Shown here piece by piece: positions 154 through 5,682 of a DNA stretch of 7,011 bases (positions are counted from its first letter, which is position 1; the number at the start of each line of letters is the position of its first letter). The position numbers and the translations under genes are program-made. Source of the stretch: a virus (Duplodnaviria > Heunggongvirae > Uroviricota > Caudoviricetes); IMG/VR virus record IMGVR_UViG_2690316343_000007, one strand, 5' to 3'. The notes beneath the pieces were generated by a model that was not told the origin of the DNA, ran no database searches, and saw only the letters and a list, made by a program, of their open reading frames with translations.

Positions 154-411
154 TTGAACAACCAGACAATGACTTTTACCCCTGAACAATTGCGTAAACA
201 CGCGCAGGAAATGCTGCGTCATGCTGAACAACTCGAAAAAACGGGCATAACAAAAGACGCTATCCGTAAAGATATGGTACCCGCGCTTCGGGAACTGATG
301 CAGGCGAAGCATCGCGCACAGAAAGCAGTAGATGAGCTGGTGGACTGTGTGGCAGAGCTGGAAACCAGAGTCGGAAAGTTTGAAAAACTGGTGCAGGAGG
401 TGCTGCGCTGA
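154..411 (+). CDS. hypothetical small lambdoid nin-region protein (85 aa, charged, predicted helical); function unknown
   Basis: ORF in the same orientation as rusA. GGAG at 142-145 sits 8 nt upstream of the TTG at 154; an alternative in-frame ATG is at 169. Its stop codon overlaps the rusA start (TGATG at 409-413), which suggests translational coupling. No family recognised. Confidence 0.5.
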   Translation: MNNQTMTFTPEQLRKHAQEMLRHAEQLEKTGITKDAIRKDMVPALRELMQAKHRAQKAVDELVDCVAELETRVGKFEKLVQEVLR

Positions 412-785
412 TGCGTCATGAGTTTATTTTACCTTATCCGCCGACGGTGAATACTTACTGGCGACGTCGTGACAACACATATTTTGTATCAAAAGCCGGT
501 GAGCGTTATCGCCGGGATGTGGCGCTTATTGTCCGTCAGCAGCGACTGAAATTAAGCCTGTCCGGAAGACTGGCGATAAAGATTATTGCAGAGCCACCGG
601 ATAAGCGCCGTCGTGACCTGGACAATATCCTGAAAGCACCACTGGATGCACTGACACATGCGGGAGTGTTAATGGACGATGAGCAGTTTGATGAAATCAA
701 TATCGTTCGTGGTCAGCCAGTATCTGGTGGACGTCTGGGGGTGAAGATTTACCCCATAATGCATGAAGAGCAGGTCAAAAAATGA
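411..785 (+). CDS. rusA: RusA-family Holliday junction resolvase (crossover junction endodeoxyribonuclease)
   Basis: 124-aa product with N-terminal LPYPPTVNTYWRRR and central RRRDLDNILKAPLDALTHAGVLMDDEQ, matching the RusA signature as I recall it. AGGAGG at 395-400 lies about 10 nt upstream of the ATG. The stop overlaps the next gene's start (ATGA at 782-785). Position matches the lambdoid nin region just upstream of Q. Confidence 0.88.
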   Translation: MRHEFILPYPPTVNTYWRRRDNTYFVSKAGERYRRDVALIVRQQRLKLSLSGRLAIKIIAEPPDKRRRDLDNILKAPLDALTHAGVLMDDEQFDEINIVRGQPVSGGRLGVKIYPIMHEEQVKK

Positions 786-1636
786 AACTGGAAGATTTAC
801 CGAAATACTACTCCCCAAAATCCCCTTGCCTGACCGATGCATCGGCCTCAACGTCAAAAGATGCGCTGAGTATCACTGATGTGATGGCCGCGCAGGGCAT
901 GACACAGAATCGGGCTGAGATGGGGTTTTCTGCGTTCCTGGGGAAAATGGGCATCAGTATGAATGACAGGGCGCGGGCAACAGAATTACTGGCAGATTAT
1001 GCACTCAGTCGGTGCGATCGTGTGGCGGCGTTGAGAAAACTTCCGGCAGAAATAAAACCGGTAGTGATGCGCATTATGGCTTCGTACGCTTTTGAGGATT
1101 ATGCCCGCAGCGCAGCGAGTAAAAAGCAGTGCCCTTGTTGCTATGGGGAAAAATTTATTGAAAGCGTAGTTTTTACAAACAAGGTCCAGTATCCGGATGG
1201 TAAGCCGCCGGTATGGGCAAAGTGTACGAAAGGTGTGTATCCGTCTTACTGGGAAGAATGGAAAAAAGTCAGGGAGGTGGTAAAAGTTGCCTGTCCGGAG
1301 TGTGGCGGAAAGGGTGAGGTTTCCACCGCCTGTAAGGATTGCCGTGGGCGTGGTGTCGCCATTCATCGTGAAGAGTCGGTAAAACGTGGTATGCCTGTTA
1401 TCAGAGACTGCCAGCGTTGTGGTGGTCGTGGCTATGAAAGACTACCATCAACGGAGGCATTTAATGCTATATGCGAGGTGACAAACCAGATAACACGCGC
1501 GTCATGGGAAAAAACAGTTAAGAAATTCTATGATGCGCTGGTGACTCGGTTTGATATTGAAGAAGCATGGGCTGAGCGGCAGTTAAAAAAGGTAACTAGG
1601 TTGATTTTTCCGGAATCTGTGGTAAATTCGTCATAA
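782..1636 (+). CDS. late-gene antitermination protein Q (Q82/QuuQ-like) with DnaJ-type CxxCxGxG zinc-finger motifs
   Basis: 284-aa ORF coupled to rusA. N-terminal region (YYSPKSP...TDVMAAQGM) resembles my recollection of Qin-prophage QuuQ. C-terminal half carries CPCC, CPECGGKGE, CKDCRGRG and CQRCGGRG motifs. Gene order rusA-Q, followed by a promoter-like element and hairpin terminator, is the canonical lambdoid layout. Not verified by search. Confidence 0.6.
   Translation: MKLEDLPKYYSPKSPCLTDASASTSKDALSITDVMAAQGMTQNRAEMGFSAFLGKMGISMNDRARATELLADYALSRCDRVAALRKLPAEIKPVVMRIMASYAFEDYARSAASKKQCPCCYGEKFIESVVFTNKVQYPDGKPPVWAKCTKGVYPSYWEEWKKVREVVKVACPECGGKGEVSTACKDCRGRGVAIHREESVKRGMPVIRDCQRCGGRGYERLPSTEAFNAICEVTNQITRASWEKTVKKFYDALVTRFDIEEAWAERQLKKVTRLIFPESVVNSS
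1601..1628 (+). promoter_or_regulatory. candidate late promoter (pR'-like) inside the 3' end of the Q gene
   Basis: TTGATT (1601-1606), 16-nt spacer, TAAATT (1623-1628) preceded by TG at 1620-1621 (extended -10 form TGgTAAATT). Located where lambdoid phages place pR'. Prediction by eye only. Confidence 0.3.
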
Positions 1637-1677
1637 CTATGGGCGTTTTATGCCTGACGTTAGAAGAGTTTCTACAA

Positions 1678-1699
1678 CCCGCCGCCGAGCGGGTTTTTT
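1678..1699 (+). terminator. intrinsic terminator (tR'-like) about 40 nt after the Q stop codon
   Basis: GC-rich stem CCCGC(1678-1682)/GCGGG(1689-1693) with loop CGCCGA, followed by TTTTTT (1694-1699). Confidence 0.5.
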
Positions 1700-1772
1700 A
1701 TGACTGAAATCGCGTCAGTACAGTAAACGCGCTGGTGGCGGTGAATACCTGTCTTTCAGCTTGCTGGCTTTT

Positions 1773-1959
1773 NNNNNNNNNNNNNNNNNNNNNNNNNNNN
1801 NNNNNNNNNNNNNNNNNNNNNNNNNNNNNNNNNNNNNNNNNNNNNNNNNNNNNNNNNNNNNNNNNNNNNNNNNNNNNNNNNNNNNNNNNNNNNNNNNNNN
1901 NNNNNNNNNNNNNNNNNNNNNNNNNNNNNNNNNNNNNNNNNNNNNNNNNNNNNNNNNNN
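1773..1959. other. unresolved sequence: run of 187 N, flanked on both sides by an identical 53-bp sequence (1720-1772 and 1960-2012)
   Basis: Read directly from the sequence. The two ORFs in the supplied track that span this run are artefacts of translating N. Confidence 0.99.
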
Positions 1960-2059
1960 ACAGTAAACGCGCTGGTGGCGGTGAATACCTGTCTTTCAGC
2001 TTGCTGGCTTTTTCGACAAGAGTTATTGGTGTGTCACGTTAACCGGAAAAGGAAAAGAC

Positions 2060-2257
2060 ATGCTAAAACAGCAGGATATGACAGAAACCGCCAGAGTGGT
2101 GTTTAATGAATTAAGCGTTACCGAACCGGCGACAGTCGGGGAGATAGCGCAGAATACTTACCTTTCACGCGAACGCTGCCAGTTAATACTGACCCAGCTG
2201 GTTATGGCGGGTCTGGCAGACTATCAGTTCGGTTGTTACAGACGCCTTCCGCAGTGA
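2060..2257 (+). CDS. small putative winged-helix DNA-binding protein (65 aa), function unknown
   Basis: AGGA at 2050-2053 lies 6 nt upstream of the ATG. The segment ATVGEIAQNTYLSRERCQLILTQLVMAGLA looks like a helix-turn-helix recognition region (PapI/FaeA-like by eye). The stop codon sits inside an intrinsic terminator. Confidence 0.5.
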   Translation: MLKQQDMTETARVVFNELSVTEPATVGEIAQNTYLSRERCQLILTQLVMAGLADYQFGCYRRLPQ

Positions 2258-2267
2258 AGGCTTTTTT
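2244..2267 (+). terminator. intrinsic terminator closing the small winged-helix gene
   Basis: Stem GCCTTC(2244-2249)/GAAGGC(2256-2261), 6-nt loop, then TTTTTT (2262-2267). Confidence 0.5.
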
Positions 2268-2270
2268 ATT

Positions 2271-2281
2271 TGTGGTAAATG
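2271..2281 (+). promoter_or_regulatory. candidate extended -10 promoter for the methyltransferase gene
   Basis: TGTGGTAAATG, i.e. TG-n-TAAATG. The same decamer TGTGGTAAAT also occurs at 1618-1627 in the candidate pR'. No convincing -35. Confidence 0.3.
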
Positions 2282-2284
2282 GGC

Positions 2285-2315
2285 GGCTGGTGGGTGTTAG
2301 GGGCACCCACCAGCC
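2285..2315. repeat. perfect 12-bp inverted repeat (stem-loop) in the methyltransferase leader
   Basis: GGCTGGTGGGTG (2285-2296), loop TTAGGGG, CACCCACCAGCC (2304-2315). No U-tract follows. A second hairpin CTGCTTT/AAAGCAG lies at 2357-2375. Confidence 0.8.
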
Positions 2316-2407
2316 ATCTGCTCATGCGTTGGGTTCACAAGCAAACCTCAGGCCCACTGCTTTGCGCAAAAGCAGAATGAGCCTATCAGAGACAGGCTTA
2401 ATGATCC

Positions 2408-3466
2408 ATGCTTAATACTGTAAAAATATCCAGTTGTGAGTTAATCAACGCCGACTGCCTGGAATTTATCCGGTCGTTACCCGAAAATTCTGTTGACCTG
2501 ATAGTCACGGACCCGCCGTACTTTAAAGTGAAGCCTGAGGGCTGGGATAACCAGTGGAAGGGCGACGATGATTACCTGAAGTGGCTGGACCAGTGTCTGG
2601 CGCAGTTCTGGCGGGTGCTGAAACCTGCCGGAAGTCTTTACCTGTTCTGTGGTCATCGCCTGGCATCTGATATCGAAATCATGATGCGTGAACGCTTCAG
2701 TGTGCTGAACCATATTATCTGGGCGAAGCCGTCCGGACGCTGGAACGGATGCAACAAGGAAAGCCTGCGGGCGTATTTCCCCGCCACAGAGCGCATTCTG
2801 TTCGCGGAACATTATCAGGGGCCGTATCGTCCGAAAGATGCCGGGTATGCGGCGAAGGGCAGTGCACTGAAACAGCATGTGATGGCCCCGCTGATTTCTT
2901 ACTTTCGTGATGCGCGAGCTGCCCTGGGGATAACGGCAAAACAGATTGCAGATGCCACAGGAAAGAAAAACATGGTGTCGCACTGGTTCAGTGCCGGTCA
3001 GTGGCAGTTGCCGAATGAAAGCGATTATCTGAAATTACAGGCGCTGTTTGCCCGGGTGGCAGAAGAGAAGCATCGGCGTGGTGAACTGGAAAAGCTCCAC
3101 CACCAGCTGGTGGATACGTATACCTCACTGAACCGGCAGTATGCGGAGCTGCTGAGTGAATATAAACATCTGCGGCGGTATTTTGGCGTGACGGTGCAGG
3201 TGCCGTATACCGATGTGTGGACGCATAAACCGGTGCAGTTCTATCCCGGGAAACATCCGTGCGAAAAACCGGCAGAAATGCTGCAGCAGATAATCAGCGC
3301 TAGCAGTCGTCCGGGTGACCTGATTGCAGATTTTTTCATGGGGTTGGGTTCGACAGTGAAAGCGGCACTGGCGCTCGGGCGTCGTGCAATTGGCGTTGAG
3401 CTGGAGACTGAACGTTTTGAGCAGACGGTTCGGGAAGTACAGGATTTAGTCAGCCAGAACGGATGA
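2408..3466 (+). CDS. beta-class DNA methyltransferase (N6-adenine/N4-cytosine family; DPPY motif suggests N6-adenine), apparently orphan
   Basis: 352-aa ORF. Catalytic motif IV (VDLIVTDPPYF) is near the N-terminus and the AdoMet-binding motif I (DLIADFFMGLGST) near the C-terminus, the beta-class order. A coiled-coil-like insert lies between them. No restriction endonuclease candidate is adjacent in the window. Confidence 0.88.
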   Translation: MLNTVKISSCELINADCLEFIRSLPENSVDLIVTDPPYFKVKPEGWDNQWKGDDDYLKWLDQCLAQFWRVLKPAGSLYLFCGHRLASDIEIMMRERFSVLNHIIWAKPSGRWNGCNKESLRAYFPATERILFAEHYQGPYRPKDAGYAAKGSALKQHVMAPLISYFRDARAALGITAKQIADATGKKNMVSHWFSAGQWQLPNESDYLKLQALFARVAEEKHRRGELEKLHHQLVDTYTSLNRQYAELLSEYKHLRRYFGVTVQVPYTDVWTHKPVQFYPGKHPCEKPAEMLQQIISASSRPGDLIADFFMGLGSTVKAALALGRRAIGVELETERFEQTVREVQDLVSQNG

Positions 3467-3506: not shown

Positions 3507-3582
3507 GGCCCTTTAGCTCAGTGGTGAGAGCGAGCGACTCATAATCGCCAGGTCGCTGGTTCAAATCCAGCAAGGGCCACCA
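3507..3582 (+). tRNA. ileZ: tRNA with CAU anticodon, most likely tRNA-Ile2 (lysidine type), alternatively tRNA-Met; encoded CCA
   Basis: Cloverleaf folded by hand: acceptor GGCCCTT/AAGGGCC, D-stem GCTC/GAGC, anticodon loop CTCATAA, T-arm GCTGG-TTCAAAT-CCAGC. Near-identical in outline to E. coli ileX as I recall it. Symbol follows the Stx-phage cluster naming and is tentative. Confidence 0.85.
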
Positions 3583-3589
3583 TCACATA

Positions 3590-3666
3590 CCGCCATTAGC
3601 TCATCAGGAAAGAGCGCCAGCCTTCGAAGCTGGCTGCGCGGGGTTCAAGTCCCCGATGGCGGTCCA
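3590..3666 (+). tRNA. argN: tRNA-Arg (anticodon UCG, reads CGA); encoded CCA
   Basis: Acceptor CCGCCAT/ATGGCGG (7 bp, perfect), anticodon stem CCAGC/GCTGG with loop CTTCGAA, T-arm CGGGG-TTCAAGT-CCCCG. Symbol is tentative and based on order within the cluster. Confidence 0.8.
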
Positions 3667-3679
3667 TTATCTGCATCAT

Positions 3680-3756
3680 GCGTTGTTAGCTCAGCCGGAC
3701 AGAGCAATTGCCTTCTAAGCAATCGGTCACTGGTTCGAATCCAGTACAGCGCGCCA
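3680..3756 (+). tRNA. argO: tRNA-Arg (anticodon UCU, reads AGA); encoded CCA
   Basis: Acceptor GCGTTGT/ACAGCGC (one G-U pair), anticodon stem ATTGC/GCAAT with loop CTTCTAA, T-arm ACTGG-TTCGAAT-CCAGT. Symbol tentative. Confidence 0.8.
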
Positions 3757-3866: not shown

Positions 3867-4220
3867 TTGATTGAGTGTTTGTTATACGGTCTAATGGTTT
3901 TTTCAGCATTAAATATTTATCATTCATATGGTGTGGGTAGAGTGAATATTGATGAGGCGTCGGGGTGTTTCATCCTTAGGCAGCGTATTGATATAGTCAA
4001 TGCAGCACGAGCAAAGGCCTTCAGCCGTTTGACAGTTTTGTTCTGTACTCCTGATCGTCTTTCGGGAAGAGACGTTATTATTCTGAATAGTGATGCTATA
4101 CAGAGGGTTTGCGATGAGTTCATGGTTGCTAATTCAGAATTATTTGCTCTTGTTCAGGAGTACAACAGAATAGCCAGGACCTGTGGTATGGATGAACTTC
4201 GGATTACTCATCTGGGGTAG
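3867..4220 (+). CDS. hypothetical protein at the accessory locus (117 aa from TTG 3867; about 109 aa if the first in-frame ATG at 3890 is used); function unknown
   Basis: Only sizeable ORF between the tRNA cluster and the repeat. Preceded by a very AT-rich intergenic stretch (3757-3866). No recognisable motif, no hydrophobic segment, start codon and RBS weak. Confidence 0.4.
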   Translation: MIECLLYGLMVFSALNIYHSYGVGRVNIDEASGCFILRQRIDIVNAARAKAFSRLTVLFCTPDRLSGRDVIILNSDAIQRVCDEFMVANSELFALVQEYNRIARTCGMDELRITHLG

Positions 4221-4367: not shown

Positions 4368-4631
4368 AGAAAACGCCAGACTGTTAGCCGGGTATCAGTT
4401 AGCGGGAGAAATTTTTAAATACTTCACAATTCAGGCGGTTGACTGTTGTCTGGTTTGCGGGGAGTTTGTTAAAAGAAACTGGCATGGTGAATCCCCCTGT
4501 GCGGAGGGGCAATCAGCGAGTAGGTATATGGGATAATCGCGGATTCAGGTGCTGGTACTGAATTCACCGGGAGGCACCCGGCATCATGCAATGGCACATA
4601 GCGCCACTCTCCAGCCCTCTCCGGAGGGGCT
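4368..4631 (+). repeat. direct repeat copy A (~264 bp), partner of 5958-6222
   Basis: Aligned by eye to 5958-6222 at an offset of 1590: one substitution (T4584 vs C6174), one 1-nt indel in the terminal hairpin, and one N in copy B. Contains several hairpins (4494-4509, 4541-4565, 4567-4581). Confidence 0.95.
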
Positions 4632-4636
4632 TTTCT
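4613..4636 (+). terminator. intrinsic-terminator-like hairpin at the 3' end of repeat copy A
   Basis: AGCCCTC...GAGGGGCT stem with one bulged base and a TCCG loop, followed by TTTTCTGTG. Confidence 0.4.
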
Positions 4637-4863
4637 GTGCCGGATACATCACAGTTTCTGGAACCTTAGGTACTACAGTATCAGTCAGGGTGCTATATTT
4701 TCAGATGTGATGAAAGCCTGTCAGCAGGCAGGGCGTATCGGAAATGACCCAGTAGAGAAAACGTTGACTCAGATACCGGTGCTGAGTTACCGGGAAACCG
4801 GCATCACATGACCGCTATCCTGAGGTGTACTGGCAATAGCGGACACTACCATTTGTTCTTTTT

Positions 4864-5682
4864 TTAAGCAGCCATCTGATGATATTTTTCCCTGAAGGCT
4901 GCCGGGGAGATATTCCCCAGACGAGAGTGACGACGCTGACGATTGTAGAAAATCTCAATGTATTCCCGTATTACTGAGATGGCTTCATCCCGGTTATTAA
5001 AACGATAGTGGCTCAGGCTCTCATTTTTCAGCGTTCCCCAGAAGCTTTCCATCGGAGCGTTGTCGTAACAGTTACCTTTACGCGACATTGATGTTTTCAG
5101 ACCAGACTGCTCCTGTATGACCCGGTAATCGTATGCGCAGTACTGTGAACCTCGATCAGAGTGGTGGATTAGCCCGGCAGGTGGGCGCTGGCTCCTGAGC
5201 GCCATAAACAGGGCTTTACCTGTCAGCTCTTTTGTCATGCGCTCTCCCATGGCGTAGCCGACAATTTCGCACGTATAAACATCTTTGATGCCAGCGAGGT
5301 ACAACCATCCCTCCTGTGTGGCAACATACGTCAGGTCCGCCACCCAGACCTGATTTGGTGCTGTAGGAGCGAACGTCTGGTTCAGCAGATTTGGCGCAAC
5401 TGGCAGATTGTGGTTCGAGTTCGTAGTCGCTCTGAACTTGCGTTTCTGCTTACAGCGTAGCCTTAGCTCCTTACGAAGACGTGCCAGTCGGTCACGACCA
5501 ACGATGATGCCATTCTCTGCCAGCTCCGTCTGGAGCCGCCGGGTTCCATATGTTTCGCGAGTGCGGATATGTGCCACCTTAATCTCCAGTTTTAGCCGCT
5601 CATCACTTTGTTTTCTGTCTGAGGGTTCATGCTGTACCCAGTTGTAATAACCGCTCCTGGATACACCAAATACCTGACACAT
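4864..5682 (-). CDS. IS3-family transposase OrfB (DDE/RNase-H-fold catalytic domain)
   Basis: 272-aa ORF with the characteristic WVADLTY, HSDRGSQY and CYDNAPMESFWGTLKNE segments. Its frame is open upstream back to the slippery site, consistent with OrfAB fusion by a -1 frameshift. Confidence 0.9.
   Translation of the reverse strand: MCQVFGVSRSGYYNWVQHEPSDRKQSDERLKLEIKVAHIRTRETYGTRRLQTELAENGIIVGRDRLARLRKELRLRCKQKRKFRATTNSNHNLPVAPNLLNQTFAPTAPNQVWVADLTYVATQEGWLYLAGIKDVYTCEIVGYAMGERMTKELTGKALFMALRSQRPPAGLIHHSDRGSQYCAYDYRVIQEQSGLKTSMSRKGNCYDNAPMESFWGTLKNESLSHYRFNNRDEAISVIREYIEIFYNRQRRHSRLGNISPAAFREKYHQMAA

Follow-up and report, generated by a model that had tools for sequence, protein, structure and literature searches.

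We analysed a window of 7,011 nucleotides (nt) from a Caudoviricetes record (IMG/VR record IMGVR_UViG_2690316343_000007; "the window" refers to this whole stretch). Here, a gene for a small winged-helix protein of 65 amino acids (aa), an mRNA leader of about 130 nt and the gene of an N6-adenine DNA methyltransferase follow each other on the plus strand. The leader is a conserved plus-strand RNA structure, as shown by the covariation of its base pairs. For the methyltransferase, both the enzyme and the kind of place are known, and only the copy is new. What merits further work are the leader RNA and the narrow-family partner protein, which both appear to be undescribed. With moderate confidence, we consider the best explanation of the whole to be a Q-dependent late anti-restriction gene of the M.EcoGII type, which would be provided with a cis-acting leader RNA and a dedicated partner protein.

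The leader shows 80-84% nucleotide identity across genera, where the methyltransferase protein is only 73-80% identical; it is thus better conserved than the coding sequence, and it includes a nearly invariant block of 20 nt (AAATGGGCGGCTGGTGGGTGTT). The 181-nt leader sequence folds at -72.3 kcal/mol (z = -3.6), and 0/200 shuffled sequences fold as well. A covariance model (R1) scores the window with 132.6 bits (E = 5e-32). The structured leader claimed in the earlier note is thus present, and its conservation across genera is far stronger than could be known to that reader. Both hairpins named there are found as well, i.e., a 12-bp perfect GC-rich one (P2 in the following) and a second one at 2357-2375 (P4), which is part of the minimum-free-energy fold.

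The structure was drawn by eye and with RNAalifold and then tested on two alignments. In a MAFFT alignment of 44 distinct sequences, 87.3% of the cells are paired, compared to 28-41% in slid controls, where the partners are shifted by 1-3 columns. Here, 11 pairs are doubly changed (3-6 in the slid controls), and 0/500 shuffles reach the observed covariation. The covariance-model alignment, which leans towards the assumed structure, provides for 65 distinct sequences 89.8% paired cells (slid controls, again 28-41%) and 12 doubly changed pairs, again with 0/500 shuffles reaching that level.

The helices P1, P2 and P3 form a three-way junction, which is followed by the hairpins P4 and P5; their positions and pairing statistics are listed in Table 1. 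The U-G and G-U pairs of P2 (UA 30/UG 28; GU 9; GU 8) would turn into A-C mismatches if read from the opposite strand, such that the structure belongs to the plus strand, i.e., to the methyltransferase mRNA. In Providencia leaders, P2 is rebuilt with other bases (GACUGUAAAGGUG with CACCCUUACAGUC). The full three-way junction is absent in Photorhabdus and Xenorhabdus, where a shorter, long-hairpin version of the leader is found instead, with GGUGAA/UUCACC around a covarying GC-rich hairpin. Since distant genera keep differing hairpins, a structure at this position predates the enterobacterial three-way junction. P4 is a near-perfect palindrome (GCTTTAGCGCTAAAGC) in many genera and could equally be a DNA operator. 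For P5, the form AGUGAGC/GCUUACU of most genera replaced a first model (AUCAG/CUGAU), which showed no covariation and many broken cells.

With regard to known RNA families, neither the window nor its positions 2270-2407 nor four diverse loci have a plus-strand match in Rfam 15 at E <= 1, S-adenosylmethionine (SAM, AdoMet) and S-adenosylhomocysteine (SAH) riboswitch families included; the lone match is a chance-level one on the minus strand (P26, E = 0.1). A full-text literature search for the leader sequence returned nothing relevant. The invariant block occurs 121 times in viral contigs: 114 times before the methyltransferase, 3 times cut by contig ends and 4 times otherwise. A use of the leader independent of the methyltransferase was rejected given the 114/121 blocks that precede the gene. 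In the 4 other cases, an unrelated low-GC open reading frame (ORF) of 237 aa replaces the methyltransferase, with the junction inside the leader. In a few E. coli prophages with such a replacement (L100, L138, L164, L183, L214), the first 80 residues of the ORF have no Pfam match; the junction lies just after P2, and the winged-helix gene and half of the leader are left behind.

Given its indels of 1-2 nt and shifting stop codons, the leader cannot be coding. Two coding candidates were discarded. A leader peptide from the conserved AUG at 2279 (MGGWWVL, with tandem Trp codons, in most Enterobacteriaceae) would have an ORF length that varies between 7, 21, 33 and >45 codons. Its AUG is missing or directly followed by a stop in several Xenorhabdus leaders, its synonymous positions are invariant, and it has no proper Shine-Dalgarno sequence. 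The other candidate, a 60-aa ORF (2233-2415), has no family match and suffers frameshifting indels across genera.

The methyltransferase had been assigned to the beta class, and its domain match (Table 1) and motif order agree with this: DPPY (residues 35-38) stands before the FxGxG motif (FMGLG, 310-314). Its best relatives among solved structures are beta-class methyltransferases, too. Over the whole length, 324/349 aligned residues (93%) are identical to M.EcoGII, with the reference taken from Table S1 of PMC11551740, i.e., from machine-read text with a few errors. By this comparison, the window methyltransferase is a member of the M.EcoGII family. M.EcoGII, which is encoded by a prophage of E. 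coli O104:H4 C227-11, accepts adenine in any sequence context as its methylation target (Murray et al. 2018, PMC5778455). It also acts on single-stranded DNA and RNA, is toxic on expression and is not expressed in its lysogenic host (PMC5778455); a review pairs it with Mom for silence and toxicity (PMC12707154). Because the enzyme family is non-specific, predicting a target motif is not meaningful, and the earlier suggestion to predict the target specificity started from a mistaken premise. Similarly, the lack of a strain-specific methylation motif, which was to argue for an inactive enzyme, is expected in a lysogen rather than a sign of inactivity, since M.EcoGII is non-specific and unexpressed there (PMC5778455).

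No restriction endonuclease gene is found in the window, as noted before, nor within 12 kb on either side in the closest complete genome, and none is adjacent to the methyltransferase as expected for a type II restriction-modification system. The sole HNH gene within that 12-kb span of the genome adjoins the terminase. Judged from this gene content, the methyltransferase is an orphan, but a known one without sequence specificity: M.EcoGII is described as an orphan (PMC5778455, PMC6602927). Murray et al. named phage 1720a-02 as a carrier of a very similar enzyme (PMC5778455). This phage is the best phage match to the region (95% nucleotide identity) and shares the arrangement of winged-helix gene, leader and methyltransferase. 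The module is present in 249 phage records, mostly Stx2-converting phages, and in 2347/5426 complete E. coli genomes, a single one having as many as 10 copies.

Direct reading reveals no canonical Shine-Dalgarno sequence before the start of the methyltransferase. A GATC (Dam) site at 2403-2406 ends 1 nt before the ATG and is kept in most enterobacterial leaders. UGAUC is also the complement of GAUCA, found close to the 3' end of 16S rRNA, and may provide a weak, non-canonical site for ribosome binding.

The 65-aa protein, read as winged-helix-like in the earlier note, is confidently modelled by AlphaFold2 (pLDDT 90.6, based on an alignment of 25 homologues) with the topology H1-b1-H2-H3-b2-wing-b3. 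Foldseek relates the model to the winged helices of IclR and MarR/OhrR regulators, to O-methyltransferase dimerisation domains and to the RNA-binding SelB (TM 0.7-0.8, at E values of only ~1e-3). Pfam provides sub-threshold matches only (TrmB with 18.0 bits for a cut-off of 25.6; MarR_2 with 14.7 for a cut-off of 27), and NCBIfam none; the protein is a member of PHROG 331 of unknown function. The winged-helix fold is supported by the model, and the ligand may be DNA or RNA.

Among 80 genome loci, most have the gene of this protein upstream of the methyltransferase; the genera range from Escherichia to Xenorhabdus, Photorhabdus, Providencia and Morganella, and the protein identity goes down to ~40%. 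The gene is also present at 108/114 viral-contig loci with leader and methyltransferase. A search from the protein side finds the methyltransferase 150-151 nt downstream in 72/73 viral loci. The family comprises 61 representative clusters among 1.84 billion proteins, nearly all of 60-110 aa. As claimed before, the gene has its own terminator, with a stem and a T tract (TTTTTTATTT). An equivalent hairpin with other stem sequences lies 5' of the leader in every genus; in loci without the winged-helix gene, it is tR' or the terminator of another inserted gene.

Table 1. Coordinates of the features discussed in the text (positions within the window).
Feature	Position	Strand	Details
Beta-class N6-adenine DNA methyltransferase gene, M.EcoGII family	2408-3466	+	352 aa; Pfam PF01555 (N6_N4_Mtase), E = 7.9e-42, residues 29-340
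Structured methyltransferase mRNA leader	2271-2407	+	covariance-model match 2267-2410
Three-way junction P1 + P2 + P3	2280-2356	+	
P1	2280-2284 with 2352-2356	+	100% paired; one compensatory change (G-C to A-U)
P2, 12-bp perfect hairpin	2285-2296 with 2304-2315	+	7-nt loop; 98.5% paired; five covarying pairs
P3	2317-2326 with 2336-2345	+	pair 56:82 is CG 29, AU 14, UA 13, UG 4
P4, hairpin CTGCTTT/AAAGCAG	2357-2363 with 2369-2375	+	89.5% paired; one covarying pair
P5, hairpin UGAGCCU/AGGCUUA	2378-2400	+	ends 7 nt before the start codon; 88.8% paired; 3 covarying pairs
Chi octamer GCTGGTGG, 5' arm of P2	2286-2293	+	
Chi octamer GCTGGTGG, 3' arm of P2	2307-2314	-	
Stand-alone winged-helix protein gene	2060-2257	+	65 aa; Shine-Dalgarno AAGGA 8 nt upstream
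Second intrinsic terminator	2244-2268	+	overlaps the winged-helix stop codon; stem GCCTTC/GAAGGC 2244-2261
RusA resolvase gene	411-785		
Antiterminator Q gene	782-1636	+	Pfam PF03589, E = 7e-55; PHROG 127, anti-termination Q-like
Candidate late promoter pR'	1601-1629	+	TTGATT, 16 nt, TGgTAAATT; read from the sequence, directly after Q
Intrinsic terminator tR'	1676-1702	+	terminator scan: 7-bp stem, 5 G-C pairs, T7 tail; kept in relatives L001 and L004
Scaffold-join artefact	1720-2012		N run 1774-1959, flanked by an identical 53-bp overlap (1720-1772, 1960-2012)
tRNA trio	3507-3756	+	CAT anticodon (annotated tRNA-Ile in relatives), Arg-TCG, Arg-TCT

According to its genes, the window represents a late regulatory region, which belongs to a lambdoid prophage of the Stx-phage-like type from Shigella sonnei or E. 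coli. Lysis, terminase and capsid genes follow the methyltransferase on the same strand in the closest complete genome (L001), and Q lies upstream there. The layout is that of a Q-dependent late operon, with Q, the terminator tR', same-strand late genes and a putative promoter. The candidate pR' is kept in L001 and L004 and is followed by a -10-like element plus GGG (AACTATGGGCG, 1634-1644), like lambda pR'. It matches the consensus at 8/12 positions, which is under the threshold of the promoter scan, such that we infer its assignment. The scaffold join between tR' and the winged-helix gene hides no further gene, as complete genomes are contiguous across it.

This setting resembles the late region of lambda and Stx phages (Q, pR', tR', StxS, moron site), with which the window shares Q, a constitutive promoter (a candidate one in the window), an intrinsic terminator, inserted accessory genes and the tRNA genes ileZ-argN-argO before the lysis genes (PMC7547250; PMC4104026). 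The order of the tRNA trio matches that of phage 933W and other Stx phages. The window differs from Stx phages in that it has no stx genes, while 933W has only the 3' end of the methyltransferase. That is, only the last ~105 nt of the gene are left in 933W (L002, 1476-1580), between terminator and tRNA genes, and the annotated tRNA promoter 'pT' of 933W sits just 3' of this remnant. Phage 933W is therefore to be read as a deletion derivative of the window-type arrangement. Where Stx phages carry stx, the window has a 117-aa ORF (3867-4220; PHROG 2873, E = 4e-70, function unknown).

Given this arrangement, we propose the following course of events. The promoter pR' would fire constitutively, and transcripts would stop at tR' in the lysogen. 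After induction, Q-modified polymerase would pass both tR' and the second terminator, and this read-through would transcribe the winged-helix gene, the leader, the methyltransferase, the tRNAs as well as the lysis and head genes. The Q-dependent step is deduced from the gene order together with what is established for lambda and Stx phages (PMC7547250). The methyltransferase would be made late and, by homology, methylate the adenines of replicating phage DNA non-specifically, such that the progeny would be broadly protected from restriction in the next host. Since the enzyme would be toxic, it would be kept off in the lysogen. Based on its position downstream of Q, pR' and tR' and upstream of the tRNA trio, the methyltransferase gene is most likely a late gene under the control of Q, whose product would protect phage DNA from restriction by hypermethylation. 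Concerning the two roles offered by the earlier note, anti-restriction is thus favoured, while epigenetic control is less likely for a toxic, non-specific and late enzyme.

Acting in cis, the leader would delay or time the synthesis of the enzyme, with contributions from the two terminators upstream of it and from the missing Shine-Dalgarno sequence. The layout of the leader is that of a riboregulatory switch, for which the evidence is modest. The 5' arm of P5 can pair instead with GGCCCAC (2351-2357), the segment from which P1 takes its 3' strand. In the resulting alternative helix P1', 85% of the cells are paired, and the positions 90:124 and 96:118 covary. P1/P5 and P1' are mutually exclusive, and each shows some covariation. 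The closed fold (P1 + P5) is paired up to 7 nt before the AUG, while GCUUACUGAUCUAUG is free in the open fold (P1'). The leader may switch between the two. The winged-helix protein would be a dedicated late partner that may help to open the leader, as Com does on mom mRNA, which is the least certain step. We have low confidence in a restraint of translation by the leader that is opened by the small protein, a reading drawn by analogy. Taken further, the leader could be an undescribed two-state cis-regulatory RNA that, like a safety catch, would secure a toxic non-specific DNA/RNA methyltransferase at the post-transcriptional level, with or without the winged-helix protein or a SAM/SAH ligand, and with a 5' arm that doubles as a Chi site. 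We regard this extended version as tentative and rather doubtful.

M.EcoGII is a widely used reagent for chromatin and RNA mapping. With regard to its native regulation, PMC5778455 says only that it "is not expressed", and nothing further was found in the literature searched. The analysis places the M.EcoGII family in a Q-dependent late operon, with a deeply conserved leader and a narrow-family winged-helix protein. The silence of M.EcoGII in its native host thereby becomes a directly testable question. Furthermore, the leader would be a candidate new RNA motif, with nearly one in two of the searched complete E. coli genomes containing it. If leader and small protein were inert, the finding would shrink to one more copy of a known enzyme.

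The closest likeness among methyltransferases is to M.EcoGII and M.EcoGI, which have the same beta-class order (N-terminal DPPY, central recognition domain, C-terminal FxGxG) and are orphans in lambdoid prophages, like the window gene. The window enzyme differs from M.EcoGII in length (352 vs. 349 aa) and in FMGLG instead of FMGSG, and its activity is predicted. The M.EcoGII publication describes neither an upstream winged-helix gene nor a leader.

With the com-mom system of phage Mu, the window shares a DNA-adenine modifier that is toxic, made late and silent in the lysogen (as predicted for the window), a protein of ~60 aa encoded just upstream and a structured mRNA leader. In Mu, com and mom overlap, and Com binds RNA as a zinc-finger protein. 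In the window, the small protein is a winged helix rather than a zinc finger; the four-Cys motif is absent from it, and only two Cys are invariant. Its gene does not overlap the methyltransferase but is separated from it by a 150-nt gap with a terminator. Expression of the window gene is proposed to depend on Q, that of mom depends on the Mu C protein and on Dam/OxyR. Furthermore, the window leader has no stem that clearly buries the AUG (~58% unpaired), in contrast to what is expected for a Com-type mechanism. The resemblance to com-mom is one of logic only, without homology. The controller (C) proteins of restriction-modification systems offer another comparison, as they are small helix-turn-helix proteins encoded next to a methyltransferase gene with palindromes nearby. 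They differ from the window in that there is an endonuclease to delay (none here) and in that C-boxes lie upstream of the C gene, whereas the palindromes of the window are downstream of the small gene. C proteins also have an Xre-type fold, while the window protein is an IclR/MarR-like winged helix.

Several points weigh against the explanation by a Q-dependent gene with leader RNA and partner protein. How leader and small protein work is what we infer from sequence. A burial of the AUG was considered and rejected, as thermodynamic folding shows no strong occlusion (mean unpaired probability 0.58). P1 rests on a single compensatory event, and P4 hardly covaries. Moreover, the sequences are related by descent and horizontal movement, such that the support appears higher in the shuffle statistics than it is. 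That the 5' arm of P2 does not vary possibly reflects a constraint on the DNA (Chi) instead of the RNA. The winged-helix gene is missing in 13/47 genome loci with a full leader, where other inserted genes or tR' itself replace it, and no change of the leader is visible. Because leaders look alike in loci without the gene, the protein is not required in cis. Finally, the window copy is possibly non-functional, given the motif I FMGLG, an altered Q and an IS-ridden draft genome (IS, insertion sequence).

Other readings of the leader differ mainly in where they place control. The leader could carry its own extended -10 promoter (TGTGGTAAATG), with the winged-helix protein binding an operator there and at pR' via the decamer TGTGGTAAAT, for a Q-independent epigenetic control. 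This would account for the TGTG...AAAT block followed by GGG that is conserved at the 5' edge of the leader and for P2 and P4, i.e., palindromes of the type bound by dimeric winged-helix proteins; inserted phage genes (morons) also often have their own promoters (PMC4104026). The extended -10 element proposed in the earlier note does not hold up across the family, however: TGnTAnnnT is found in 0/65 distinct leaders, and 38 lack even a relaxed form. The spacing from TGTG to ATGGGCGG varies, the window copy has a G at the -7 position (in place of the last T of the hexamer), there is no conserved -35 element as the upstream sequence is a variable terminator, and a transcript starting 7 nt past the element would lose the 5' strand of P1. 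The decamer does occur twice, at 1618-1627, where it is part of the plausible pR', and at 2271-2280. A shared regulatory site, as was suggested, does not follow from this, since the recurrence is near chance level. That is, at least 3 matches with at most 1 mismatch are found in 8/200 shuffles, and ~20 repeated 10-mers are expected in a 7-kb window (own arithmetic). The repeat is also limited to the E. coli lineage and not found in the leaders of other genera. Together with the missing expression of M.EcoGII in lysogens (PMC5778455), this makes an own promoter improbable. About equally unlikely is that the hairpins are transcriptional attenuators, as further terminators or pause sites that can be passed by Q-modified polymerase only, and that neither translation nor the small protein is involved. 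It is in line with two canonical terminators already upstream, with the high stability of the GC-rich P2 and with the equivalent hairpin in Xenorhabdus, which is often followed by CUUUUAUGCC. The respective U residues are, however, paired within a longer helix, P2 of Enterobacteriaceae is followed by AUCUGCUC or AUUCGCUC without a U tract, and a simple terminator would need neither P1, P3 and P4 nor the invariant 20-nt block. P2 of the window was likewise rejected as an intrinsic terminator, since the stem is present but its tail ATCTGCTC lacks a U tract. That the methyltransferase is one half of an ordinary restriction-modification system with the endonuclease outside the window has next to no probability. 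Nothing speaks for it beyond the methyltransferase gene itself, while 12 kb to either side hold no endonuclease in the closest complete genome, the same genes are always next to it (Q on the 5' side, tRNAs and lysis genes on the 3' side) and M.EcoGII is a described orphan.

A constraint on the DNA level concerns the Chi octamer GCTGGTGG, which is found in both arms of P2 (Table 1). The window has 8 Chi sites (7 real ones and one doubled by the scaffold join; 336, 1731/1971, 2286, 3106 and 4324 on the plus strand, 2307 and 3100 on the minus strand), compared to 0.3 expected. Within the 80 genome loci (665 kb), the sense strand of the late genes carries 322 Chi sites, and the opposite one 74. 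From lambda genetics, the late-gene sense strand is the orientation recognised by RecBCD when entering from the right-hand cos end. Palindromic Chi on both strands occurs at two places, namely the P2 hairpin (2285-2315) and CCACCAGCTGGTGG (3100-3113) inside the methyltransferase gene. In P2, the second Chi on the opposite strand results from the perfect 3' arm of the E. coli form. Leader conservation could thus reflect a 5' arm kept as Chi, which attenuates RecBCD and stimulates recombination, without any RNA function. The position of Chi in the invariant arm, its excess in the window, the 47 of 322 plus-strand sites that fall in the leader bin and a fixed 5' arm of P2, opposite of which the 3' arm drifts mostly via G-U pairs, are all compatible with this. 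On the other hand, Providencia and many Xenorhabdus leaders have lost Chi and kept the hairpin by compensatory changes, Chi accounts for 8 nt and not for the 20-nt block, P1, P3 or P4, and it offers no explanation for the covariation of P3. We thus assign a low probability to Chi as the sole cause. Since lineages without Chi kept the hairpin, it is not the whole story and may be a second constraint superimposed on the leader. The invariant 5' arm GGGCGGCUGGUGGG (2281-2294) also fits the pattern of a two-tetrad G-quadruplex, a possible alternative reason for its invariance.

A separate question is the condition of the Shigella copy. Its motif I reads FMGLG and not FMGSG (Ser-to-Leu, L313). Among 197 homologues from the fetched loci, DFFMGSG is found in 175 and DFFMGLG in 1. 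The exact methyltransferase protein of the window is recorded as Shigella on at least 997 contigs, i.e., the allele is fixed in the Shigella lineage. Judged from the motif, the copy may be weakened by the exchange in its AdoMet-binding site. Q is altered, too. Relative to E. coli and E. albertii relatives, an 8-bp deletion in the region 1590-1636 removes its stop codon, such that the ORF crosses the -35 and -10 elements of pR' and encodes 284 aa instead of the 273 aa in E. coli relatives. An exact match of this Q protein is recorded as Shigella sonnei, and the altered allele is fixed in Shigella; records of the exact Q and methyltransferase proteins come from about a thousand contigs. It is conceivable, though clearly less probable than the Q-dependent reading, that the window copy is a decaying, functionless remnant in a cryptic Shigella prophage, which concerns this copy and not the module. 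The rare Ser-to-Leu exchange, the Q ORF reading through pR', the IS3-family insertions and IS-bounded contig joins downstream, and 933W as proof that the gene can be lost are in line with decay. Set against this, the methyltransferase ORF is intact with its 352 aa, FxGxG is formally kept, the covariance model matches the leader over its full length, and at least 997 Shigella contigs carry the same, fixed allele.

The downstream part of the window bears further marks of its assembly. A single 'n' at 5959 is followed by 248 bp that repeat the STnc100 region exactly (4370-4617 = 5960-6207), and IS-end sequences lie at two contig edges (4816-4851 ~ 6976-7011). That is, contigs were evidently joined at repeated or IS sequences, and the gene order beyond ~4640 may not be real. 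An IS3-family transposase is found further downstream in the window. The prophage small RNA STnc100 is present in two full-length copies (4453-4642 and 6043-6232, with 122 and 132 bits) and a third, degenerate match (4681-4869); STnc100 is a relative of PasD (2026 preprint).

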